Source: Schmidtea polychroa
Lineage: Eukaryota
Length of the DNA stretch: 64,000 bases
Reading direction: 5' to 3'
Assembly (NCBI GenBank): GCA_044892525.1
Contig: CM097885.1
Location: 28,088,001-28,152,000 of the forward strand
The translations under genes and the position numbers were made by a program. Under the pieces are notes generated by a model, which saw only the letters and a list, made by a program, of their open reading frames with translations, was not told the DNA's origin and searched no databases. This document shows positions 1 through 62,409 of this stretch, piece after piece; positions within the stretch are counted from its first letter, which is position 1; each line of letters starts with the position of its first letter.

Positions 1-87
1 GGTCTGATCGAGATTTAAGTGTAACCATGTATAGGCAGAATTTAATTCTCTACAACACGGCGCAATTACAATTTCAGTTTGGTGCTT

Positions 88-480
88 TGTGTGTAATGCA
101 CACATGTTTTTACAATAAATTTGTATTTTTTCGCGCGGTTACGTAATTTTCTTGGATTTTTATTCATTTAATATATAGATAAAATTTAATTTTCTATAAA
201 ATAGCTTGATTAAAAATTATGTCTCGTATGTTGTGTGTAATACACACATGTTTTTACGATAAATTTGTATTTTTCGCGCGGTTAACGTAATTTTCTTAGG
301 ATTTTATTCATATAATATATAGATAAAATTTAATTTTCTATAAAATGGATTGATTAGAAATTATGTATCTTGTTTTGTGTGTAATACACACATGTTTTAT
401 TATACGTTAACGTAATTTCCTTGTATATTTATTCATATATTATAGAGATAAAATTTAATTTTCTATAAAATGGATTGATC
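88..480. repeat. Three ~145-bp degenerate tandem repeats upstream of the Polinton polymerase
   Basis: Unit tgtgtaatacacacatgttttt...gataaaatttaattttctataaaat starts near 89, 233 and 378. Copies 1 and 2 contain TTTCGCGC. Shorter ttattactttgttgcaat repeats follow to ~860. Confidence 0.85.
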
Positions 481-973
481 TAGAGTTTAAAATGTTGTAT
501 TATTTTATTACTTTGTTGCAATATTTTTATAATCTTATAACAATTTGCTTAAATATTTTACATCTGGTGAAATATTTCCGAAATATGTTATTACTTTGTT
601 GTAATTTACTGAAAGACTTCACAATTTATTACAATATTCTTTTTTAATTTGTTGTCCGTCTTCGAAATAATGTATTGATTTGTCCCAATTAACATCATTA
701 TTTTATTACTTTGTTGCAATATTTTTATTATTTTAGTTACAATTTGATAAATATTTTACAACTGTTGAAAATTTATCTGAAATATGTTATTACTTTGTTA
801 CAATTTTATGAAAACGTTATTACTGTTTTGCAATTTGATGAAAAAAAATGATATTACTTTGTGAGTTCAACACATTATTTTTATTAAATTATTATGAAAA
901 TGTTAAATAAGTCAACTTTAGCGTCAAAATGTGTTTTAAAATTTAAGTTTTAAAATACTGCAATGTAATGCAT

Positions 974-1082
974 TTATTTTTCCTACCCCTTCCTTGATTT
1001 TGATTGGTCAGAATATATTTATTTTTCCTACCCCTTCCTTGATTTTGATTGGTCAGAATTTAATCATGTGTAATATATAAGC
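974..1082 (+). promoter_or_regulatory. Putative Pol II promoter of the pPolB gene
   Basis: Duplicated ~40-bp block atttttcctaccccttccttgattttgattggtcagaat (each has an inverted CCAAT box), followed by TATATAA at ~1074-1080, ~50 nt before the first splice donor. Confidence 0.55.
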
Positions 1083-1131
1083 AGTAACTTTTCAAATGTT
1101 TGTCATTTAAACTTTTAATTTAACTTATATA

Positions 1132-2205
1132 AGTGAATAAATTTTTATTCTCTATCTAATATTAATGATTATTTTTTAGTGAACGGATGCAGTTTATATA
1201 AATTTTGTATTGCCGAAAGTCATGAAGATGTGGAGAACTGTAAATCAGTTACATCATCATATTTCAAGATAAATGACTCTACCTTATCGGGTTACATATG
1301 TCCGGAATGTCTCATTATAACACCAGGTAGGTGGTTAATGTTTGTACGACAACACGGACACCATCTTAGAAGATTCGAAGAAACGAAGAGCAGGATGATC
1401 ACTAAAAGTAATACTCTTTCTACTATTAACAATTATTAATTTTTTATAGTACAATCGAAAATGAATACATCATACGATCCTAAGGAGATTAAAGAATATG
1501 TTACAAGTTATGTTATTTAAGTTGTTTAATATTAATTATAAATATAGTTAGACAAAACTCTGGCACCACAAAACGAAAGTCAATATTTTACGGAAATGGA
1601 GACTCTAACATACAATTGTGTCCACGTCGGGAGTCTGACTTAAACGGTTCTCGTGTTGAATTGACAAGCGATGTATCTGCAATTAATTCTCCTGACATTG
1701 TTGTTCCAGATTGTCTCATCAAAGAAATAGAAGATCATATTCAACGAATGGGGACAGTAAAAATCCAATTTGGACTTTGTGCAGAGTTTATCAAAGAGGA
1801 TGGTGAAATTAAAAAATGGTGTTTGTCGAATAAAGCAATTACAATGTCATCTTCATTTATTAATGATGGAATTGAAAAATTAAAAGAAAAGTTGGAGAAA
1901 TACACTCAACAAAGTAGTGGGTGGAGAATTCATAAAATATTAGAAGTTACTATGATTTTAACTAAATTATCAGACATAATACATGTATCTGGTAAGATTA
2001 TTTACATTATTATATATATATAAATCAAGAGATTACTTAGGTTCAAGTTACATTAAAACGCCAAATTACCTGAAAAACTGTCAGGCTTTAGTTAATGTTC
2101 AAAACAATGATCAATTCTGTTTTTTATATAGCATACTAGCTGTGTTACGTTATGATGATATACGTCGGAATAGAGAAAGAACAACAAAATATAACTTAAG
2201 TGGTA

Positions 2206-2236
<31 letters not shown>

Positions 2237-5129
2237 AATGTCATAAATCATTGAATTTTGTTTTTAAGACTTAAAATGGAAATTTGAATGGTTTCCGATG
2301 AAGTTGGTTAACATTTGCCAATTTGAAGCAATTAATCCAAATCTAGCGATCAATGTTCTCAAATATAATAAAGATCCAATTAAACAAAAAACTAATGATA
2401 TTTTCAAGAATCCGTTCATTGACTTGGTATATAGAAGTACTTCGACGGGATCTCAGATATATCTCCTATTGATTGAAGAAGGTAATATTTCCTTTAATCA
2501 TTAAAAATATTAACTAAATTTAGAATTAAATTATCATTTTTTGGCTGTAACTAATCTCGATCGACTGCTGAATTACAGAGATAGAGTAGAAGGAGTCAGA
2601 ATCCAATCACATTGGTGTCATACGTGTCTTCATGGGTTTCAAAAACGTCCTGCTTTTGAAAGACATATAGGTCTTTGTAGGAAGAATGTGGAGCGTACGA
2701 CTCTATACTCAATGCCAGAGAATAAATATATCGAATTTAAAGATTGGAGTAAAACTATAAAACAGCAGTTTGTTGTCTACGCGGACTTTGAATCGATATT
2801 ACCTCTAGATGACAAACACTTCCAAAAACATGAGCCGATTGCATCTGAATTTGTGCTTCTCCATCAAGGTTGTCCGATCCGAAATGAAACATTTGTTGGG
2901 AAAAACTGTATCATTCAGTTCATACAAGCATTGGATGATATAGCTACAGACATAGTTTATCCGTGGTATAAAATTAATGGATCAAAGGAAATGATGGAAC
3001 TCACTTGGGAAGAGCAGGAAGAATTCACGACTCAAACTCATTGCTACCTTTGTAAAAAGATTATCAATATACCCGTTCGAGATCATGATCATTTTACTGG
3101 TCAATATCTCGGAGCAGCGTGTCAAGATTGTAATTTGGCTAGAAGAATCAATCCGTCTTTACCTGTTGTATTTCATAATCTTCGTGGATATGACATTCAT
3201 CATATATTAAAATATGCAATTGGAAAATTCCCAGATTGGAATTTAATTGTTATTCCTCAATCAACAGAAAAGTTTCTCACACTTACAGCGACATCGAAAG
3301 GCAGAAGAATTAGATTCATTGATTCTTTACAATTTTTAAATAGCAGCTTGGCAAATTTATCAAAAAACTTGCCACGTCTTCCACTTACTTCAAAGATTTT
3401 CAATTCGCATCTAATAACTGGTAAAGGCATATTTCCTTATGATATTGCTACGTCAATGGATGTTTTACAGTCAATAACAGAATTACCATCGATTTGGGAG
3501 GGAGTTAGTCAAGAAGATTATATACATGCAAATCAAATCTGGCGACAATATAACTGTGAGACACTGCTAGATTACATGCTAGTATATCTCAAGTTGGATG
3601 TTTTTGTGTTGGCCGATGTTTTTGAAGCTTTCAGAGAAAAAACATTTGACGAAGATGGACTTGAGGCTTTATCGTTTGTTTCCATACCCGGATTAAGTTG
3701 GGCATCAGCTATTAAACAGTTACCTGAACCGGTAGAACTTATTCAAGATCCAGAGCTTTACCGTTTATTTGAAGCTGGTATTCGTGGTGGAATGACATTT
3801 ATCAACAAACATCATGTTGAAGCTGATGAATCAACACAAATGTCATACCTAGATGTTAATAATTTATATGGATGGGCGCTGTCGCAAAAACTTCCTATTG
3901 GTGAATTTAGATGGATAAATGATCATACTGAAATGAATGGTATTGTTGAAAGATGTGCAAATGGGGATGAGTTTGATGGAGATCGTGGATATGTTCTAGA
4001 GGTTGACATCGTCATTCCTGATAGTATACAAGATAAGCTAGATGATTTACCTATAGCTCCTGAGCTTTGTTATCCACCTGGTAGTAAAGTTGAAAAGCTG
4101 TTGTTAACTCATGAGCCTAAGAAAAACTATGTAGTTAATGGTAGAGTTTTGACAGAGTGGTTGAGTTACGGCGCAAAAGTCACAAAAGTTAATCGTGCTG
4201 TAGAATTCAAGCAAGTAGCTATTTTCAAACGCTATATTGATTACAATACTCAAATGAGAGCAGCTAGTACAGATTCATTTCAGCGAGATTATTATAAGTT
4301 AAAGAACAACAGTTTATATGGTAAAACCGTGGAAAACCTTAAGAAACGTATAAATTTGAGATTATGCAGCAAAAGCAAAAGATTGATAACTTATTGTAGT
4401 AATCCTATGTTTCGTCGTAGCATCAAGATTGCGGATGATCTCATTGCTGTTATACTTGATAAGGAAATGGTGTGTTTAGATAGACCAATGTATATTGGAC
4501 AAACCGTACTTGATTTATCTAAACTTCGCATGTACCAGTTTCAATATAAAGAACTACAGAGTTATAGAGAAGAATTCAATTGTCAAATTAATATCGTAGC
4601 CGGTGACACAGATTCCTTCTTTTTAGAGTGTAAAAATGTTGATTTACGCTTACAACTGTATCCAAAAATGATTGCCGATGGGCTCCTAGATACTTCAAAT
4701 TATCCGGTGACTGATCCATTGTTCTCAGATAAAATTTGTTCGGTAATCGGGAAATTCAAGGATGAGAATAAAGGAAATCAATATAAAGAATGGGTGTTTC
4801 TTCGACCCAAGTGCTACTCACTCCAAGGAGATAAAAACACTCTAAAAGCCAAAGGAATAAGTCTTACAAATTCTAATATCACCCATGAAGCCTATAAAAA
4901 AGTGTATACTGATGGTGGAACAGTGAGCATCCAACAAAAGAGAATAGGAAGTGTTAATCATCAGTTGTATACTTTCATTACTGAAAAATGAGCTCTCCAA
5001 TGTTTGGATGAAAAAAGGTATTGGTTCAATTCTAATGAAAGCTATGCCTACGGTCACTATAAGATTCGTCAAATGCATATCGCAACTGCTCCGTCTACAA
5101 ATGAATGCAAATCGAAACAAGAACTTTAA
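1132..5129 (+). CDS. pPolB: Polinton/Maverick (adintovirus-type) protein-primed family B DNA polymerase, 7 exons, one in-frame TGA near the C-terminus
   Basis: Exons 1132, 1180-1407, 1450-1506, 1548-1991, 2041-2202, 2269-2481 and 2524-4991(5129) join in frame via GT-AG introns. Motifs: C2H2-like finger, GSSYI..P..NVQNND..CFLYSILA, exonuclease YADFES / FHNLRGYD / YLKLDV, EndoVII-like RDHDHFTG..C..CN, polymerase YLDVNNLYG, KLKNNSLYGK, GDTDS, RPKCYS. TGA at 4989-4991 precedes the conserved ALQCLDEKR...AYGH tail, which ends at TAA 5127-5129. Confidence 0.9.
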
Positions 5130-6127
5130 CAATTAAATTTATGTGAATAATAAAATATATATTGTGAATTATTTGACTTCGTTAATTAAAATATGTTTTA
5201 TCATTTAATAATTCATTTGTCCAATTAATTTAGATAATTAGTTTTAAGTAAGAATTATTATTTATCATGAAAAACTTTGCTTTGTTTTGAAAAATTAATG
5301 CCCATTTTATTTAAATTAACACAGCTTTATTTTATGATAATTACCAATTAAAATTTTATTCAAATTGAATAATTACTAATTAAAATTTTATTCAAATTGA
5401 AATATTATTGTTATAATTTACGCTCTTGTTAGAATATAATGTAAAATTAAAAAATAAATAAATAATAATTAAATAACGTTGGCAATTAAAATAAAGTATT
5501 AATAAACAAATTAATTAATTAAATGTAATAAATTAAAAATTAACTAAAATAAGTAATTAAAGTATAACATCATAAAATAATTAACTAATAAAATTAAAGA
5601 GAAAAAAAAATAGAAGTAATTAAATAAAATTAAAAATAATAATAATAATAATAATAATTAAAAAGCGTAAGTAATTAAAATAAAATATTAATAAACTAAT
5701 AAATTAATTAAATGTAATAAATTAAAAATTAACTAAAGTAAGTAATTAAAATATAACATCATAAAATAATTAATTAATAAAATTAAAAAGAAGTAATTAA
5801 ATAAAATGTTAATTTAAAAAATAAATGATTCGATTGGTCTATATTTGATCTTGATATTCCATGACCTTGAAAGTGAGTTGGAGTCCTTACTATTCACTAC
5901 TTATCAGGTAAAATTTTTAATCAATAATTGCACATTTAAATCTACAATACTTGAATTTATTTTTAACAAATTTGCATTTTAAAAATAATAATTGCACTTT
6001 TAAATCAATAAAAATAAAATTTTTAAAAAATCAATAATCAGTAATCGTGAAAATTTTGCCTCAATTGAATTTTTCAATTTAATTAGTATTTAACAAATAT
6101 TAATAAATTCAAAAAAAATATTATTAC

Positions 6128-19866: not shown

Positions 19867-22392
19867 CACTAGGACGGCCAGAGCGGTCATTTTGACCGTT
19901 AAGCAATTTCATTTTTATTTTGTGAGAAAACGAAAAGGAATTAACGTCTCATATTTTTTGACAATTATTCATTTTTAGTGAACTTGTTGTGTATATCAAA
20001 GCTTCAATTATAGCATTTGTCACGACTGAGATAATGAGGCCATCCCCATGGAAGGCCGAACCGGTCAATTTGACCGGTATCTTGAAACACACAAGAAAGT
20101 CACACATAATCATCTTACATACTAGAAAATATAAAACCAAATATAATTTACACACAACCGAAGCATTTAACAGTCATTTGGGAATGTTTTCCACAGTAAA
20201 CTTTACTACATACATGGCATATAGCTCCGGATTTGTTATCACAATGAGGAGCAGAACAAGTTTTTCGCTTCTTTAATTTTGGTTGTTCAGAACAGAGTTC
20301 ACCAGAGATGGGACTTGCTGTTCGACGGCTTTTGAACTCCTCACAAAGAGATGTAGCTAATTCAAAAATAAAATCCCTTCTTTTTATAGTTGATCCCGTA
20401 GCATCTTTGAAAATAACATGAGCGTTGAGAGCTGCTTTATCAAGCAAATCATAGAAAGTAGCGACTGGCCATCTTGCTGTTGCGGCTTTACTGCTGTATA
20501 AACACAACATGCTATCCATGGTATCTACAGCTGTCTTATTTTTGTTATAAAAGTGTATCATTTCAGGCTTTCTCTTTTCGTCAGATCTCACACTAGCAGT
20601 AGAATGGAATGTTGACATGACAATGACTTTCTTGTCCGATTTGCCTTGATAGGAAACAGTGACAGTGTTTTGACACGATAAATGAGTCGATTCAAAAAGA
20701 GGCTTTTTCTCCAAGTGAGCTGATGATAAAAAGCGTGAATTTAATCTTACAGTACCAACCAATGTTGTTCGATTTACAAGGAGATATTCAGCTAGTGAGA
20801 GACTTGTAAAGAAATTGTCAGTGCAGACATTGTATCCTTTATTGAAAAATGGCTCCATTAGTTTCCTGACTACAAAATCACCCAGCCGTAATCCACAGCG
20901 TTCGTTTCTATCGTGAGCCCCTAAATATGGCATTTGATTGATGACAAATTTGGTTTTGACATCACTGAGAATCCAGTATTTGATACCGAATTTATCAGGC
21001 TTATTTGGCATAAATTGGATGAAGCAACACCTATTTTTTAGCGGCAAAAGTTGCTCGTCGACAGTAAGGAAGGGATTAAGAGTATAAACTTGAAGACAGT
21101 TTGAAACAAACAAGTCAAATATTTCACGAAAATGGGCATATTTATCTTGTTCTACTCTTTGACGTCGAGAACATTGTTCATCAAAACGAAGAAAGCGCAG
21201 TATCTCACGGAAACGGTTCCGAGACATGACTTCTCTGAAGTAAGGAGATCCAAATTGAGATGACCAGATTGAATTGATAGAATGTCGGCGAAAGCCTAAC
21301 ACACCACGGAGATACAGCAATCCAAGAAAAGCATCTAATTCTTGTAGACTGATACACCAGTCTGACGAAGCTTCTTTTCCTTTCATAATTGTGTATTTTT
21401 GAATTAACTTCAGCATTCCCTCAGAGACTATTAAGCGCCAAGCGCTCAGGGGTGAGTCAATTTTGCGCTTTGCAAAAGCTTTCACACCAGGTGTTCCACT
21501 AAAAATATTGTGCGCAGGGAATCTGCCAACACTAATAGCGTGATTGTTTTCTACTCGATTCCAAAGAGTGCCATCCCTGCTAGATAAAAGCTGATTTTCT
21601 AATGAAGAAATTGAGCTATTGACTGACTCATTGTCACTTTCTAACGAACTTCCATTATCATCAGAGTTCCATTCATGTAACTCTTCGTCAGAATCATTTC
21701 TTTCAAGCTCATCATCACTTCCCATAGGCTGATCTTCATCTTCGGAGAGAGCAGCGTGAATATTCCATAGCTTCTGTAAAGCACGTTGAGCAGCAATTCT
21801 TTTAGTTGGCATATTTGATTCTAAAATAATGATAAAAACTCCGTCAGTAAAATAAGAAACGTCAAATTTATTATTGGATTCTAATGAAAACACGGTTTTA
21901 TAATGTTTGTTATCCCAAGAAGTTCAAAGATTTTCTATAACAATTATTAGATATTGTCTTATGACATTTCGTTAAGTTTTTCGTTTGATTCTTTTAATTT
22001 ACCAAATTTCAAAACTTAGAACTCTTAATGCTTGCTTAATTACACTTTTAATAAGCACTATCTCTGAATAAAAGCAAGAGAATATTTATAAACAAGAAAT
22101 GAAGTATACATACATACCAGTCTGAATAAACGCGAAGACAATGTTTAAAATAGTGTAGCTTTGTGTCAGCTAAACAAATATTTTTATTTCATTGATGTAA
22201 GTAGTTTAATAAATTAACTACTGTTAGAATAAAAATAGTTAAATTTTGAAAGCGTGTTAGTAGCACAAAGAAAGTATTGCTAAATGAGTTGCATCATAGA
22301 AATCTCAGCATGAAAATAAGGAGCATATGTGCACCGGTCAAATTGACCGGTTTGGCCTTCCAAGGTATAAAATATTTCCGGCCGTCCTAGTG
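19867..22392 (-). mobile_element. Full-length piggyBac DNA transposon
   Basis: 13-bp TIR CACTAGGACGGCC at both ends; internal palindromes cggtca.tttgaccg at ~19886, 20061 and 22334. Left flank TTAA, right flank TCTT. Confidence 0.95.
20148..21812 (-). CDS. piggyBac transposase (PGBD4-like), intact ~554 aa
   Basis: Acidic N-terminus, DDD triad (TVDEQL, CTDNFF, AVDTMD), NKPDKFGIK and a C-terminal Cys-rich domain. First ATG at 21812. Confidence 0.95.
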   Translation of the reverse strand: MPTKRIAAQRALQKLWNIHAALSEDEDQPMGSDDELERNDSDEELHEWNSDDNGSSLESDNESVNSSISSLENQLLSSRDGTLWNRVENNHAISVGRFPAHNIFSGTPGVKAFAKRKIDSPLSAWRLIVSEGMLKLIQKYTIMKGKEASSDWCISLQELDAFLGLLYLRGVLGFRRHSINSIWSSQFGSPYFREVMSRNRFREILRFLRFDEQCSRRQRVEQDKYAHFREIFDLFVSNCLQVYTLNPFLTVDEQLLPLKNRCCFIQFMPNKPDKFGIKYWILSDVKTKFVINQMPYLGAHDRNERCGLRLGDFVVRKLMEPFFNKGYNVCTDNFFTSLSLAEYLLVNRTTLVGTVRLNSRFLSSAHLEKKPLFESTHLSCQNTVTVSYQGKSDKKVIVMSTFHSTASVRSDEKRKPEMIHFYNKNKTAVDTMDSMLCLYSSKAATARWPVATFYDLLDKAALNAHVIFKDATGSTIKRRDFIFELATSLCEEFKSRRTASPISGELCSEQPKLKKRKTCSAPHCDNKSGAICHVCSKVYCGKHSQMTVKCFGCV

Positions 22393-34056: not shown

Positions 34057-34534
34057 CTATTAAACTTTTAATTATTATGTCTTTATACATGACAGACATA
34101 ATTATTCGAATAAGTTAATAATTTTTTTAACAAATTTTAGGAATGTATTTTTAAAAAATTGAATCAGCTGAAGAAATAAATAATTTGAAAACTAATTTAC
34201 AAATTATAAATATAAACAAATATTTTTCTAAAAATTTATTTAAAATTAGGAATTTTAATTTTTAATTTAAACTAATCACAGAATTAATTCTAAAATATAT
34301 TTTTAGTGAGGTTCGTGGTATTTATTATAAATGACTCTCAAATATATTCAATATATTAAATTTTTATTAAGTCTAAATACAGAAACATTGAAATTGGTTT
34401 AGTGAAAGTTAGATATCTGTTTGTTTAAATAATTTGGAATTGGCGGTTTTGCGAATTAATTAAAACTTGTTATTTAGAAATTCTTTGATTAAATATATAT
34501 TGTTAGTTTCGAGATTTTTGCTGCAAATTTAAAG

Positions 34535-35842
34535 ATGGATCTAAAGATGGATTTAACTGGCGACCACGCCGAAAATCAAAATATCAACGCCATTTCAAAA
34601 TCGACAAAATCGCTAATGGAATGCCTACCGAAATCATGCCAAGACATGCTCACATTGAACATCAGACGATATGATGGACGAAGTTTAAAAGAAGCCGAAG
34701 AATGGATCAGGGATATAGAAGAATGGTTGCTGACAAATGGACAGCGATTGACAAGCACTTTCGATGTGTTATTAGTGGCAGAAGCAAAGACATTGTGGGG
34801 AAACGTCAGAGAAGCAGAAACAACAGATGTAAAAGCCAAAGTGTGGTTCTTAAATACGTTCACAATTACAAAATCAATAACTGACAAAATCAGAGAATTG
34901 GCAGCTATGGAACAGGAAGATGATGAAAGGTTTGCAGCTTTTGAAATACGGCTAAGGAAAGCTTTAGCTGAAGTTATAAATTCAGGACGATCAGAAGAAG
35001 ATATTGTTCAAGATCTCATCGCAAATAAAGCACGCGATGCGAGACTGAGAGAGATACTATTGACGAAACCAGAAACAAAAATTGAAGAAACGAGATCATT
35101 GGCGAAAATTTTTGAAAGTAACAAAAATGGAAACCATAAAACAGAATTTATTAAAGCAATCGGTCAAAGAACATACGCTAGCGTGACTGAGGGAGGGAAG
35201 ATGAGAATTCAAAAGAATACCCAAGATCCCATGCATACATCATCACAAAGAAGACTACCAGAGGACCAATTTAGTCACCACAGATCAAGAAGAGACGAAC
35301 ATCCTATACGCGGACCAATACAATACGAAGGAAATAACCATGGTCGTCGAGAACAATCTCCAAGACAACAATTCTTGAGAAATGCGAGAATCCCGAATAG
35401 CTCAGAAAGGAAGCTGCCAACAATATCCATGAAGAATATTGCAAGGAGGCTGTACAATGAAAGTAGGGGACTACCACAAGCATCGGTCCCAAAATTAACG
35501 GTAGATGATTGTTTTTGCTGTGGCGAAAGGGGACATAGAAGGTATGAGTGTCCACTGGGAAATAAATGTCTGATATGTGGCAAGGAAGGACACGGGTTCC
35601 GAGATTGTTTTTCGTTACGGAAAGATGTTCCACAACGATATCAAAGAATAGCGTGCATAGAAGAAGAAGATTCAAAATCTGAAACAAGAGATTACACCGA
35701 GAACAGCCAGGATTTCAGAATGGATCACAGCAATATGGAAGATAGATACAATGTCCCTGAGAAATATACTATATTGAGAGAAGACGGAAAAAACATCAGC
35801 GACTCCATGGGTTTCATTTCGTCGGTGGAGTCAAGACAATAA
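34535..35842 (+). CDS. gag: Gypsy Gag with two CCHC zinc knuckles
   Basis: CFCCGERGHRRYEC and CLICGKEGHGFRDC. Confidence 0.92.
   Translation: MDLKMDLTGDHAENQNINAISKSTKSLMECLPKSCQDMLTLNIRRYDGRSLKEAEEWIRDIEEWLLTNGQRLTSTFDVLLVAEAKTLWGNVREAETTDVKAKVWFLNTFTITKSITDKIRELAAMEQEDDERFAAFEIRLRKALAEVINSGRSEEDIVQDLIANKARDARLREILLTKPETKIEETRSLAKIFESNKNGNHKTEFIKAIGQRTYASVTEGGKMRIQKNTQDPMHTSSQRRLPEDQFSHHRSRRDEHPIRGPIQYEGNNHGRREQSPRQQFLRNARIPNSSERKLPTISMKNIARRLYNESRGLPQASVPKLTVDDCFCCGERGHRRYECPLGNKCLICGKEGHGFRDCFSLRKDVPQRYQRIACIEEEDSKSETRDYTENSQDFRMDHSNMEDRYNVPEKYTILREDGKNISDSMGFISSVESRQ
35788..35832 (+). promoter_or_regulatory. -1 ribosomal frameshift signal (gag-pol)
   Basis: Slippery heptamer A AAA AAC at 35788-35794 in the gag frame, 6-nt spacer, stem GACTCCA(35801)/TGGAGTC(35826). 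pol is in the -1 frame. Confidence 0.8.
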
Positions 35843-38800
35843 ATTGTGAAATAGGAAATGAACAACGAAGAGACGAGGCAGAAGAAGAGATGTACCAGAC
35901 GAAAGATGGAAGAAATTGGAGTAAATTAATGTTGAATAATGCCGAAACAGAGATGTTATGGGATTCTGGAGCATCAGTAACAGTTATGAGCAAGAATTTG
36001 TGGGAGAAAATAGGCAAACCAGAACTTAAACGTTGTATGATATTATTGTGCGGAGTTTTTTCAACTGGAGGTGAAGAAGCAATGGGATACATGACTATAC
36101 CGGCCACGTGGAATCAGAAGACCAAAATGATCACAGTAGTAGTGGTAAAAGAGATCAAACCCGAATTCATAGGAGGCATTGATACAATGAAAGAGTTTGG
36201 AGTAAAGTTAATGAAAATCAATAATATAGAAACGTCATTGATAAACAAAATTTACACTGATGAAGAAAGAATAAATAAAGCACTAGTGGCGATGGCAGGT
36301 GAGAATAATAAAGATATGGAAGGAATGATCAGGGAATTCGGCGGAATTTTTATGGCATCGAAATTCGATCTGGGATTTACAAACTTAGTTCGACATGAGA
36401 TGCGGATAACAGGAGGCCCAATAATGCAACATCCTCGACGTCAACCAATGCACATGGAGAAAAAGATTGAAGAACTGATAAAAGAGTTAATGAAAGCAAA
36501 TGTTATTCGGTGTTGCAAGAGTCCTTGGAATGCCCCGTTAGTGATAGTAGGGAAGAAAGATGGATCTATCAGGATGTGTGTAGATTATCGTGGATTAAAT
36601 TCCATAACAGAAAAAGAGTCATTTCCGATGCCTAACACCAAATTCTTACTAGACTGTCTCGAGAATGCAAAAATATTTTCGTCAATCGATTTAGGTCAGG
36701 CGTATTATCAAGTGGAGTTAGCTCCAGAAATTCAAGAGATGACTGCATTCAGTACAAGAGAAGGACAATTTTGCTTCAATAGACTACCATTTGGCTTAGC
36801 AACAGCTCCTGCGACATTCCAGAGACTGATGCACACAGTGCTAGAAGGAATGCTATTCAAGGGAGTAGTAGTTTATCTAGATGATATCTTGGTATATGTT
36901 AAAAGTCAAAAAGACCACGATGAGCTATTAAGGGAAATATTCAGAAGAATTCAAGTGGCAGGACTGAAGATAAATCCAGAAAAATGCAAATTCAATAAAA
37001 CAGAATTGTGTTTCTTTGGTCACACAATTAACGAGAAGGGTATCCAGACAAACAGGAAGAAAGTGGAAGAGATCGAGAAAGCAGAAGTACCAAAATGTTC
37101 AAAACAATTGAGATCGTTTCTCGGATTAACGAACTACTATAGAAGATTCATCAAAGACTATGCCAAAATCGCCGAACCATTATACGCTGCAACATCTGGA
37201 TGCGATAAAGATATAAATTGGACTAAAGAATGCAATGAGAGCTTCCAAACTCTGAAGAGACGGTTGTGCGAAGCACCTATCCTTGATTTTCCAAGAGAAG
37301 ATAGGACTTTTATCTTAGACACAGACGCTAGTTTTGGAGCCATTGGTGCAGTTTTGAGTCAAATTACAGAAGATGGAGAAGAATCTGTCATAGCTTATGG
37401 CTCGAGACATATGTCATCACATGAAAAGGGATACTGTGTAACCAGGAAAGAACTGCTCGCCGTACATGAATACGTCATGCATTTTAGAGAATATCTGTAC
37501 GGAAAAAAATTCATAATTCGCACCGACCACAAGGCATTGGTTTTCATGAACACTACAAAACGCCAATCAGTCCGCAGTTCCAAACATGGTTAGCTAACCT
37601 GTCGGAATATGATTTTGAACTAAAATATCGGAAAGGAGAAGAACACTCGAATGCAGATGGACTATCAAGATTAAAAAGTATGATTTGCACCCAGTGTCAA
37701 ACAAGACATGAAGAAGCTAAGCAAGGAAAATCAAAGATTAGATATATATATACTATCCAAAGAACAGAAGCTATGGAAAAAGTATGGGAACAACAACAAA
37801 AGGACATTCGGTTTCAAGAGCTGCGAGAGATATTGGAAAATGGATGTACACGGGAGAAAAAGAATTGTTTTCCTTTTAACGTAAAAAATACACGAATTGA
37901 TGGAGGATTAATAACAGTAGAAAAGAACAAAAATATCTTAATGTTAGTCCCAGAAACATTTGCAGGCCTGTTAACAACAACACTACATGAAGAACTATGT
38001 CACATTGGAGTTAAGAAATTATTTCATTATATGGAAAAGATATTTTATTGGCCGAAAATGCAAGAAACAATCCAACTCTGTTTACGATGTTGCGAGATCT
38101 GCGCTAAGAGAAAGATCGATCAGACAAGAACCAAGGAAACATTTATTCCTAGATATAGCTCTGAATTCCTAGAACAGATTGTTTTAGATGTGGCTTACAT
38201 GGAAATAAACGCCATGAAAAAATATATGGTAGTAATGGTGGACCGTTTTAGCAAACTGATTTCTTTAACTGCAATCACAAAGCAAGACGAAGAGACAATT
38301 TTCAAAACAATGCTTAATAGTTGGATCTATCGATTTGGAAAACCAAAGAGCATTTTAACTGATAGAGGCCGAAATTTCGAAGGGAATTTCCTAAGACAGA
38401 AGCTACAGAAACTTGGAATCAAACAGGAATTCAGCTCACCTTATCAGCACCAATCAAATGGTTTAGCCGAAAGAGCCATACGAACGATAAGAGATCTTAT
38501 TACAGCAACATTGGCAGGCGGATGTGAAGAGAGAAACTGGCACGAACTTCTACCCAGAATAGAGTTCACTATAAATAGCAGTCGACAAAGTGCTACAGGT
38601 TTATCACCATTTGAGATAATCTATGGACGGAGTGTTAACCTACACTCTAACCTGAAACAAGCCGAGATATCAAGAAGCGAAAGAATCGAAGACGCGAGAT
38701 TTAATTCGAGTAAAGCCGCAGACACTATGAGAGCCATGGATAAGACAAAGAGGGGCACACGTGTTTTCGAGGTGGGGGAGGAGGTACTCGTACGTAAAGA

Positions 38801-38948
38801 GCCGCAGAACAGGCACAAGGATGGTATGCAATACGATGGCCCATATAAAATCGCCAGATTTCTATCACCTCATCGAGTCGAACTACATTCACAAGAAGGA
38901 ACGAAAGAAAGAAGAATCGAGTGGCTGAAGAAGTGGAAAAATTCTTAA
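35794..38948 (+). CDS. pol: Gypsy Pol (PR-RT-RNase H-IN) with a single frameshift near 37560
   Basis: WDSGA protease, YLDD RT, TDAS RNase H, HHCC + DDE integrase, GPY motif. The reading frame shifts at NTTK|PISPQFQTW. Confidence 0.92.
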
Positions 38949-39934
38949 GAAGGGGAGAGTTAGATATCTGTTTGTTTAAATAATTTGGAATTAGCGGTTT
39001 TGCGAATTAATTAAAACTTGTTATTTAGAAATTCTTTGATTAAATATATATTGTTAGTTTCGAGATTTTTGCTGCAAATTTAAAGATGGATCTAAAGATG
39101 GATTTAACTGTGAAAATTACATTAATACTTAATAATGTTCAATTTAGTTAATTCTCAACAAAAACGACGTAATTGGTGATTATAGGTAATTTGTTTGGAC
39201 CTAAATAGTAACATATATCGTCAAAAAGATGATACTTATCTAAACTTTTTCCATTGTTTGTTGAAAATATTTATCTCCTAATTTTTATTGTATCTTCTAT
39301 CAATTGTTTATAGAAAAAAAATATGTTACCTAAATTATGCTTATTTTACTTATTTTACATCTCAAAAGTTACTAAGGGTTAAGAGATATGGGGTGTCTTT
39401 ATTTAAGATTTTCAACATTTTGGTTTATATCGTTACTGATGATCTTGACTTCTGTTGGGCTGAAAACGAGAACTGAGAGTTTGTTTTAATCGATCGAAAA
39501 TACCTAACACAAAAACCGCAAATTTGAAAATAATCTATGATCAAGATCTAATTTAAAATAAATGAAATAAATTACATCACACATTAAGAACCAATAAACC
39601 CCGTATAATAGAATAAGAGATAAATAAATTTAACAAAAAATTCAACACTTAAAAATTTAAAATGGAAAAATAATAAAATATAAAATAGAATTAGTTGAAA
39701 ATTATTTAAACAATATAAAAATCGTCAAAAATAATAAAATTAGTTAGCATTATATAAATTGTAAAGTTTATAGAATTAAATGGTTATTTAACTTATTAAA
39801 TTTAAAGAATAAAAATGTTTAAATTAATAAAAATTAATATAACGCAAATTATTTAAATTATAAAATTTATAAAATTAAAATTAATAAAAATTAAATAAGA
39901 AATTAATTAAATTTAGTGAATTAAAACAAATAAA

Positions 39935-60665: not shown

Positions 60666-61590
60666 AAAAAGTCACAGATGGAAAAATATTGTTAAATCTA
60701 TCATTGATATTGTCTGAACCGGGATCATGGTGTATTCCATACATTTCATTATCAACAAGATTATTAGGGTCTGTCCTAGGTAATATTCCAATATCATCGT
60801 CAACATCAATGACATCAACTCCTATATAATGACCGAATATATAACTTGAATTTTTTCCCACCCAGGCGCGCTTATTGTCGTTATTTGTTACGACAATATT
60901 TGAATTTTTAAACGTGAGAAGCTAATGATTCCGGGTTCCTGTTCTAGACTGCGTTACTGAAAGAATCTGATTGTTATTATAACAATCTAGATATGATTGA
61001 TGGTTAATCTATGTCTAAAGTAATTTTACCATCTTAACCTTCATAGCTAATTTGTTTCCTAAGAGGCTATAAGATTTTTGGTGCAAGAAAACCCACTCCT
61101 GATATTTAATTCCTTCACTCTCATCTTTGAACAAGAAATAGAACAATAAGCAAAGTAAATAGTAAATCTATATTCTTTTTTATTGTTAACCTCCTCTCTT
61201 GGTCCTCAATCAAACTGGATCTCCAAAGATTTATGGAGTGCTCAGTCGTATATTTGCCAAATACTCCTAGTCCTATTTCCATGGAAATTCACAAAACTTA
61301 GTTATGAAATTGAATCACTCTAACTAAGTATTTCTAGCCCCGTAGTCTTTGTGGCAAAAGTAACTGCTGAATATTTACTCAACTAAGTTTTAATAACCAA
61401 TTTCAAGGACACAAGTGCCCAGGGAAAGCTCCCCGCAAAACTTATTGTAAAATAGTAAAAGAATATTCAAAATTATTTATAAAATATTTTAATTAAACTT
61501 TTTATCCAATGAAAATTATAAAAAATGAATAATATAAAATAATTTTTACAATTATAAAATTTAAACCTTATTTATTAAAACAAACAAAAA

Positions 61591-62409
61591 ATGATTTATA
61601 ACGAACAATATAAATTCATTTCCTTACTTCAAAAGAGTTTCAAGAGTATAATTTACGTAGCCGAGAACCATTCAAACAAAAACCGGGCCCATAAAACAGT
61701 TGTTATTAAAAGTGTGGACAAAAGTGTAGGACGTTTGTTCATAAAAGATGAAATGTATCCATTTCCAATACCCAAAGAAATGTATTTTATCAACCTTATT
61801 AATGATGAAAAGCTCTGTCCGAAAATTCTTGATTGTTTTCAGGATGAAAAAAAGTTTTCAATTGTTATGGAAAATCTAAACGGAAATTGGATAAATTTGT
61901 TTGACTTTGTTGTAATGAAAATACAAAAAGAAAATATTGTCAAAATATATATGAGAAATATCGTCAAAGCTTTATCAAAATTTAACAGTAAAGGTATTTA
62001 TCATCTGGATGTCAAACCTGAAAATATCATGATCAATCAAGCTAATTACCAAATAAAATTTATCGATTTCGAATGTGCCCTTAATGATCATATAAACAAA
62101 AATCCAAAATATGACATTTTTGTTGGTACTGTTGGATGTTCAAGCCATAACGCTGTCAAAGGTCTGACATACGATGTGAAGAAAAATATGGTTTTTGAAA
62201 TCGGCAGTTTAATGTATTATTGCATTGAAGGGAAAGATATGTTGAAATTTGAAGATGATAATTATGTCAAATGCAATTCTTATTATAAATGTTCCAAATG
62301 TGCTGAAAATTTAATTGAAAAATGTTTGTCTTACAGAGAAAATGATAGAATAAAATTAACTAAAATCATAAAATGTAGCTGGTTTAATAATAAAAGTTCG
62401 ATAAAATAA
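61591..62409 (+). CDS. Intronless divergent Ser/Thr kinase (PIM/CAMK-like fold), 272 aa
   Basis: VVIK, P.E, IVME, YHLDVKPENIMI, IDFE, VGT, CL....R. Gly loop, DFG and APE motifs are non-canonical. Confidence 0.85.
   Translation: MIYNEQYKFISLLQKSFKSIIYVAENHSNKNRAHKTVVIKSVDKSVGRLFIKDEMYPFPIPKEMYFINLINDEKLCPKILDCFQDEKKFSIVMENLNGNWINLFDFVVMKIQKENIVKIYMRNIVKALSKFNSKGIYHLDVKPENIMINQANYQIKFIDFECALNDHINKNPKYDIFVGTVGCSSHNAVKGLTYDVKKNMVFEIGSLMYYCIEGKDMLKFEDDNYVKCNSYYKCSKCAENLIEKCLSYRENDRIKLTKIIKCSWFNNKSSIK

Follow-up and report, generated by a model that had tools for sequence, protein, structure and literature searches.

The core genes of Polinton (Maverick) elements have been described as uninterrupted. 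Intact vertebrate Mavericks have no introns (PMC8097293), and in the C. plicata element the core genes are intronless and the cargo genes contain introns (10.1101/2022.07.12.499685). The DNA polymerase of Polintons (pPolB), a protein-primed enzyme of family B, has a vOTU domain before the exonuclease, giving a terminal protein (TP)-vOTU-exonuclease-palm layout, and TP/vOTU splits have independent origins in polintons and adenovirids (PMC11161782). Polinton terminal inverted repeats (TIRs) measure 100 to 1500 bp, with spliceosomal introns unmentioned in the sections available (10.1101/2023.08.22.554363), as is PolB splicing in those of PMC8502044, PMC8363768, and 10.1101/2024.03.25.586562; PMC12220804, to the same extent, names group I introns only. 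Introners occur in dinoflagellate eupolintovirus-like elements (PMC12166617), and planarian Polintons are under piRNA control (PMC8532177). In adenoviruses, the E2B pTP and Ad-pol mRNAs have common 5' exons, and the start codon of IVa2 of turkey haemorrhagic enteritis virus is formed across a splice junction (PMC11304566). A literature search found no description of a spliced Polinton pPolB or of palindromes with two polymerases, although supplements and Repbase entries may show such exons. Here we describe the pPolB gene at the start of a 64,000-nt stretch of the Schmidtea polychroa genome (the window; GenBank assembly GCA_044892525.1, contig CM097885.1, forward-strand positions 28,088,001 to 28,152,000). 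The gene lies in one arm of a near-palindromic Polinton derivative and is divided by six spliceosomal-type introns, a well-supported departure from the intronless state described for Polinton core genes.

In its predicted domain order, vOTU Cys/His residues, and PF03175 match, the gene resembles the pPolB of Polinton/Maverick elements of the adintovirus or Eupolintoviridae type (PMC11161782), and the element shares with Polintons its AGTAGT ends and 6-bp target duplications. Unlike the vertebrate Mavericks and the C. plicata element, it has introns; unlike Polintons with TIRs of 100 to 1500 bp, it has inverted arms of about 6 kb that hold the whole polymerase gene; and unlike an autonomous Polinton or adintovirus, it contains no integrase, ATPase, protease, or capsid. 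The presence of spliceosomal-type introns inside a polinton-like element recalls the dinoflagellate introner elements. However, those introners are copies of a mobile family (PMC12166617), whereas the introns here are mutually unlike, fixed in the family, all in phase 1, and partly shared with distant relatives. As with adenovirus E2B and IVa2, a related polymerase appears to be expressed via splicing, with a start codon across a junction as in IVa2; in adenoviruses, however, TP is a separate gene and the vOTU is inactive, while here the predicted TP is fused, the vOTU Cys and His are kept, and the introns lie inside the coding region.

Results

The gene was compared with 29 distinct copies from the same genome, taken from the loci fetched, and is laid out as follows (window coordinates).

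992..1080, + strand: predicted RNA polymerase II (Pol II) promoter, from a CCAAT-box word present twice (992, 1037) and a TATA box (1074)
1132, + strand: final nucleotide of leader exon 1, kept in 28 of 29 copies; start codon predicted across intron 1
1133..1179, + strand: intron 1, 47 nt, phase 1, within the start codon
1180..1407, + strand: exon 2, Cys/His-rich zinc-finger-like N-terminal module (motif read by eye)
1408..1449, + strand: intron 2, 42 nt, phase 1, in the linker
1450..1506, + strand: exon 3, 57 nt, linker; length constant in 29 of 29 copies
1507..1547, + strand: intron 3, 41 nt, phase 1, in the linker
1548..1991, + strand: exon 4, end of the linker and predicted TP (D1) domain; aligns to residues 55-198 of homolog P0001
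1992..2040, + strand: intron 4, 49 nt, phase 1, at the TP/vOTU boundary, splitting a conserved Gly codon
2041..2202, + strand: exon 5, first part of the vOTU, with the catalytic Cys motif
2203..2268, + strand: intron 5, 66 nt, with a (TA)n microsatellite, inside the vOTU in the loop after the catalytic Cys
2269..2481, + strand: exon 6, second part of the vOTU
2482..2523, + strand: intron 6, 42 nt, phase 1, located in the hairpin four codons ahead of the catalytic His
2524..5129, + strand: exon 7, carrying the vOTU His strand plus the exonuclease and polymerase domains; free of introns
4989..4991, + strand: premature TGA, private to this arm

An initial annotation of the window had given the coordinates of the six introns beforehand, and all six segments (47, 42, 41, 49, 66, and 42 nt) begin with GT, end with AG, and are AT rich, with a GC content of 11 to 17% versus 28 to 37% in the exons. 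All are in phase 1, and the internal exons (228, 57, 444, 162, and 213 nt) are multiples of 3 that are stop free only in the phase-1 frame. The spliced frame runs for 1190 codons up to the TGA at 4989-4991 and then for 45 codons to a stop ending at 5129. A start codon arises only when exon 1 is joined to exon 2, and each of introns 2 to 6, if retained, brings in a stop codon within that intron. The exonuclease/polymerase exon, annotated as intron-free, indeed has no intron in its 820 codons. The GT-AG ends, T-rich acceptors, host-like lengths, and restored frame are features of spliceosomal (U2-type) introns. At the 5' end, the promoter word and TATA box recur in the environmental relative L170, relative L172 has an intron whose end precedes its ATG by 4 nt, and exon 2 aligns with the N termini of homologs P0003, P0011, and P0015 at 23 to 33%. 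Introns 2 and 3 end in an unconserved linker, and their ends are placed by reading frame and copy conservation only.

GT..AG ends are kept in 27/29, 28/29, 29/29, 27/29, 28/28, and 27/27 copies for introns 1 to 6, respectively; they are missing in two copies, where an insertion or rearrangement disturbs the alignment, and in one element, both arms of which have an altered donor 4. The lengths of the introns vary, and not in steps of 3 (47, 50, 51, or 62 nt for intron 1; 42, 44, or 45 nt for intron 2; 46 to 52 and 499 nt for intron 4; 43 to 148 nt for intron 5; 42 or 43 nt for intron 6), and exon lengths deviate in just 4 of 141 measurements. Substitution rates in the exons are 0.0104, 0.0085, and 0.0187 at codon positions 1, 2, and 3 across the 29 copies, the third position thus changing about twice as often. 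The premature TGA is a defect of this arm, since the site is open in 54 of the 55 copies listed, the partner arm included; it is likewise open in 44 of 44 matches within overlapping fetched loci, and the region 3' of it matches the C terminus of 73 of 81 long homologs (proteins of at least 900 amino acids).

Uninterrupted homologs are colinear with the spliced protein across junctions 4 and 6. Of the tightly aligned proteins in the long homolog set, 39 of 44 leave exactly one residue at junction 4, and 44 of 50 do so at junction 6. At junction 5, 31 of 32 homologs have two residues more, and P0001 and P0003, in looser alignments, have none. In a sister Polinton family of this genome, a single open frame spans junctions 4 to 6, colinear with exons 4 to 7.

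Splice joints were looked for in assembled contigs of sequencing runs. A contig of run X4 (depth, 39.5) departs from the genomic sequence at 2481, the exact intron-6 donor, and rejoins it with a net loss of 42 nt, and X4 contigs with a depth of 4 to 7 span intron 6. The X4 sequences belong to a related element of another organism, about 85% alike, and the RNA nature of the run is only a guess; we regard this joint as suggestive of splicing. Joints for introns 1 to 5 were not seen in two contig comparisons, which cover contigs only and do not bear on expression, and none of the six joints was present in X6 in 15 of the 16 rows listed (5,181 contigs), which is no evidence on expression either. 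It could be argued that the segments are unspliced AT-rich insertions that killed a gene now copied passively by a non-autonomous element, as the element itself has no direct junction reads and this arm carries a premature stop. However, this is highly improbable given that six of six GT..AG segments restore one frame, that their ends are kept while their lengths drift, that exon substitutions favour third positions, that positions are shared with distant relatives, and that the X4 joint exists. We consider it very likely that the host spliceosome removes the six introns constitutively.

The polymerase was annotated as being of the Polinton/adintovirus type, and exon 7 bears this out by matching Pfam family PF03175 with an E value of 3.7e-32 (112 bits, above the cut-off). 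Domains were mapped through a structure model of the uninterrupted homolog P0001 (mean predicted local distance difference test score, 89.6), which consists of a disordered N terminus, an alpha/beta domain (residues 76-190), a second domain (about 200-340), and a phi29-like polymerase; a homolog model also matches adintovirus and bidnavirus PolB. When the second domain was folded alone, taken from a natural frame, the top 23 VIA-align rows were OTU-family chains, the best with a Z score of 7.0, a root mean square deviation of 3.4, and 104 aligned residues; this Z score is middling and is supported by the consistency of the family. The match covers model residues 8 to 141, approximately, with the junctions of introns 4 and 6 at 3 and 128. 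A PDB sequence search with the vOTU profile gave nothing below an E value of 0.05. The catalytic Cys and His are present in 99 of 100 homologs and in exons 5 and 7 of the window, and the Gly at intron 4 is found in 86 of 100. For exon 4, the model has a confident alpha/beta domain where one is expected, and a Ser-Gly loop in it is conserved; searches of Pfam and Atlas gave no usable match, and a homolog search with exon 4 alone found no match. From its topology and position, it is predicted to be the TP (D1) domain (PMC11161782). Introns 5 and 6 cut inside the vOTU, and hence only introns 1 to 4 respect domain limits.

Environmental Polintons show part of this intron pattern beyond the present family. 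Among the metagenome loci that match exons 4 to 7, L170 and L179, 51 to 57% identical to the window gene, have introns of 43 to 48 nt with GT..AG ends at positions 4 and 6. Position 4 is in the same codon and phase in both; position 6 is in the same codon in L179 and one codon further from the His in L170. Homolog P0005 has 15 extra residues at position 6 that resemble a read-through intron, so the position is probably shared there too. Among the relatives examined, intron 5 was seen only in this family. L171/L183, L190, and L173 lack introns 4 and 6 and have three or four linker introns, and L167-L169 have no introns, with L168 and L169 keeping an intact ATG behind a TATA box. In L170, which has no match to the zinc-finger exon, the leader exons are spliced directly onto the exon-4 equivalent, and L173 has exon-plus-intron units duplicated in tandem (read by eye). 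As an observation in its own right, the L171 metagenome contig is an almost complete environmental Polinton that encodes an integrase, an ATPase, and capsid-like genes and whose polymerase has three phase-1 linker introns.

Since positions 4 and 6 are common to relatives only 51 to 57% identical, the annotated idea of a lineage with host-style intronised genes holds insofar as the lineage bears introns, and a recent or local intronisation is unsupported; the sequence comparison indicates a pattern that is more general and older than one local element. Monophyly of the bearers of introns 4 and 6 was rejected on the polymerase tree (approximately unbiased test P value, 1.7e-69) and on the TP-plus-vOTU tree (1.8e-7). 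That they form a clade on neither tree favours an old gain with repeated precise loss. An N-terminal module swap was considered as the cause of the patchy introns and rejected, the TP-plus-vOTU tree also refusing monophyly. Alternatively, introns 4 and 6 could have been gained independently several times at splice-prone sites after elements settled in intron-rich hosts, in keeping with the patchy distribution on both trees, the enrichment of G before the donor at codon position 1 (share, 0.47), the one-codon offset in L170, and the restriction of intron 5 to this family. Such a history is quite unlikely, though, because the same two sites, among about 1,100 codons, would have to be hit together in three or four lineages while exon 7, with its 820 codons, was never hit, and the introns are mutually dissimilar, giving no hint of a single mobile source. 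Comparing the six introns pairwise, we found no similarity beyond that of shuffled sequences (best pair, P = 0.012 of 15 pairs).

The positions of introns 4 and 6 also raise the question of a regulatory role. Retention of intron 4, or polyadenylation within it, could yield a stand-alone TP, and skipping from intron 4 to intron 6 would drop most of the vOTU protease, so that separate primer and polymerase products might be made from a single gene, in the manner of the adenovirus E2B unit. Introns 4 and 6, shared with relatives across 51 to 57% identity, bracket the vOTU almost exactly, retention of intron 4 stops translation 10 codons past the TP domain, and the start codon depends on splicing; the independent TP/vOTU splits (PMC11161782) and the common 5' exons of pTP and Ad-pol (PMC11304566) point in the same direction. 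Nevertheless, we regard this possibility as rather unlikely: no alternative junction was seen in the contigs, in many relatives the genomic DNA has neither intron 4 nor intron 6 (L169, L171), skipping leaves the His strand behind, and an early stop also follows from retaining any of the other introns, so that intron 4 is not special in this respect. The suggestion that symmetric exons may serve as modules survives at the evolutionary level, as seen in L170, in L173, and in the placement of intron 4 at the TP/vOTU boundary, and finds no counterpart in alternative splicing among the contigs.

A host baseline was drawn from rough automatic calls in host myosin genes, which include false calls and shared paralogous positions; the best matches of the host myosin V are animal proteins, at 65% or less. 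By this measure, 57 of 135 introns are at most 100 nt long, mostly 41 to 60 nt, and the description of the element's introns as host sized is apt. Phases 0, 1, and 2 account for 34, 13, and 10 of the short introns and for 69, 41, and 25 overall. Under these rates, six phase-1 introns out of six have a probability of about 1e-4 to 8e-4, compared with 0.003 under a base-composition null, and six introns all in any single phase have one of about 0.01 to 0.05. When relatives were run through an automatic caller without an assumption about phase, 16 of 17 calls were in phase 1, and the 17th lies before the ATG of L172. Two sister polymerase families of the same genome each start with three phase-1 mini-exons (by eye). 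Separately, the protease-like gene of the sister family has a candidate 34-nt intron close to its start (L115:4378-4411, minus strand); by eye it is in phase 2, so that the phase-1 rule may be polymerase specific.

The arm that carries the gene contains the following further features.

1..5901, + strand: right arm of the near-palindromic Polinton derivative, matching the inverted left arm at 99.1% identity across 5954 columns
12..479, no strand assigned: degenerate ~144-bp tandem repeats (repeat families D10, D12, and D13), upstream of the promoter
5442..5819, no strand assigned: two ~189-bp AT-rich subterminal repeats (repeat family D9)
5896..5901, + strand: element terminus ...ACTACT (AGTAGT on the other strand)
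5902..5907, + strand: target-site duplication of 6 bp, TATCAG, which also precedes the left end

The whole element spans about 13.5 kb (G000:C1:28080444-28093901), its left arm and a 1.6-kb spacer lying directly before the window. The polymerase genes form divergent pairs facing outwards, and the copy in the partner arm lacks the premature stop. The exact 30-nt end has 70 matches in the genome, which form 31 pairs of identical termini 12.5 to 15.7 kb apart and 8 singles; 6-bp target duplications flank 15 of 16 end pairs and 2 of 2 further pairs, and exon 4 has at least 150 identical matches. An assembly fold-back artefact is ruled out by the target duplications, differing host flanks, and arm-specific differences. 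In one element (L147:1779-5790), the 144-bp upstream repeat has grown to about 25 tandem copies.

Neither arms nor spacer matched the integrase, ATPase, penton, or capsid markers of the co-resident sister family, and the spacer region has no long frame and no Rfam match. True termini of that sister family bound the spacer, which resembles the family's subterminal DNA at up to 91%. Just outside the inner termini, the two sides have the same six bases in inverted form, which means that the arms are a duplication and do not mark an insertion site. A one-armed insertion (L263:3052 to L264:5758, G000:C3) has its own 6-bp target duplication and mismatched ends and consists of a polymerase arm, about 7 kb without marker matches, and a sister-family terminus. 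Among the matches listed, no autonomous parent with this polymerase was present at the loci read around unpaired or odd matches. Two other readings were dropped: a bipartite Polinton with a polymerase segment and a capsid segment, because complete copies of the sister family carry their own polymerase, and an invertible spacer, because the arms are identical and the orientation of the spacer is that of the element.

Several further loci involve these families. At L132:1363-6539, the left arm carries another polymerase family (54% on exon 7, with three phase-1 leader exons) behind the same promoter-proximal arm DNA; this is an arm chimera, and L265 has a similar switch within the gene. A two-polymerase palindrome (L258:4243 to L259:7516) is inserted within the penton-like gene of a sister-family Polinton. 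Besides a polymerase of its own, the co-resident sister family encodes an rve integrase, an A32-like ATPase, and a TBP-like protein (L115:9413-9901; PF00352, E value 1.9e-14). The genome also holds a second, canonical Polinton family with at least 126 capsid matches, and the integrase, ATPase, protease, and capsid genes that the palindromic element lacks are present in these two families. Elements of both these families have one end region duplicated in inverted orientation (L125-L127, L128-L130, and L091-L093), and in two cases of this set the duplication replaces the polymerase side. Elsewhere in the window are a 591-amino-acid piggyBac-type transposase frame (20148-21923, minus strand; PF13843, E value 2e-68), a young long-terminal-repeat retrotransposon (34404-39110) with 156-bp direct repeats that are 99% alike and with gag, pol, and integrase in three overlapping frames, and a 276-amino-acid protein kinase frame (61579-62409, plus strand; PF00069, E value 5e-24).

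Discussion

Taken as a whole, the observations are probably best explained by constitutive splicing, old clade introns with subsequent losses, duplication of units, and formation of the palindrome by arm copying. In this account, the host spliceosome would constitutively remove six phase-1 GT-AG introns, of which introns 4 and 6 would go back to the ancestor of the clade and have undergone several precise losses, whereas those of the leader and linker would be gained and lost repeatedly. Phase 1 is probably kept throughout because new introns in the linker and leader derive from duplicated exon-plus-intron units, as seen in relatives, and because only exons of the same phase can be gained, lost, or swapped with the frame intact.

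In linear DNA viruses, copy-back or embedded-terminal-repeat defective genomes carry a second, inverted copy of one end region, with inner terminal repeats between the two. The palindromes described here differ from such genomes in that they are integrated at dozens of sites with target duplications and keep two polymerase genes. The palindrome probably goes back to a one-armed element, composed of a polymerase arm and a sister-family remnant, whose arm was copied onto the opposite end by way of the inner repeats as the strands were displaced in replication, with integration in trans. The recently spread element likely borrows the integrase of a co-resident Polinton family.

Several points weigh against this account. 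The evidence for removal in RNA comes from assembled contigs. The type of run X4 is guessed, its element is that of another organism, and a DNA copy lacking the intron could account for the joined contig; in contigs of X1, X2, and X4, introns 2, 3, or 4 are still present, as would be the case in DNA or pre-mRNA. Some of the uninterrupted homologs come from contigs of 4 to 5 kb and may themselves be spliced transcripts, whereas L169, L171, and the own-genome families are genomic. The 16 phase-1 calls amount to 13 distinct introns, because L171 and L183 are near identical, and related elements are not independent. In the window, the caller recovered only introns 4 to 6 (3 of 6) and then miscalled intron 3, choosing the frame-breaking 1512-1551 in its place. 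Unit duplication cannot account for introns 4 to 6, which lie in folded domains. The trees are quick trees whose deep nodes have support of only 84 to 96, leaving room for parallel gain at favoured sites. Finally, the arm-copying step and the integrase donor are inferred, and a literature search gave no paper in support of the adenovirus precedent for embedded terminal repeats.

A further-reaching idea, which we put forward as doubtful, is that an animal Polinton clade makes separate TP and polymerase products by means of the phase-1 introns flanking the vOTU, as an intermediate to the adenovirus pTP/Pol arrangement, and that the palindromes are self-copying satellites that trade arms and borrow integrase.

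In summary, we describe an intron-rich polymerase in a young, high-copy family, with intron positions shared at only 51 to 57% identity. Since Polinton core genes are searched for as single intronless frames, spliced copies have likely been scored as decayed and missed. In this family, the gain and precise loss of introns can be studied in a compact natural setting, a DNA virus-like element for which no RNA stage is known, as can the question of why a single phase dominates. The intron at the TP/vOTU boundary makes a route from the fused Polinton protein to the split adenovirus proteins testable, and the two-polymerase palindromes, together with the one-armed form, bear on Polinton replication intermediates that have so far gone unobserved.

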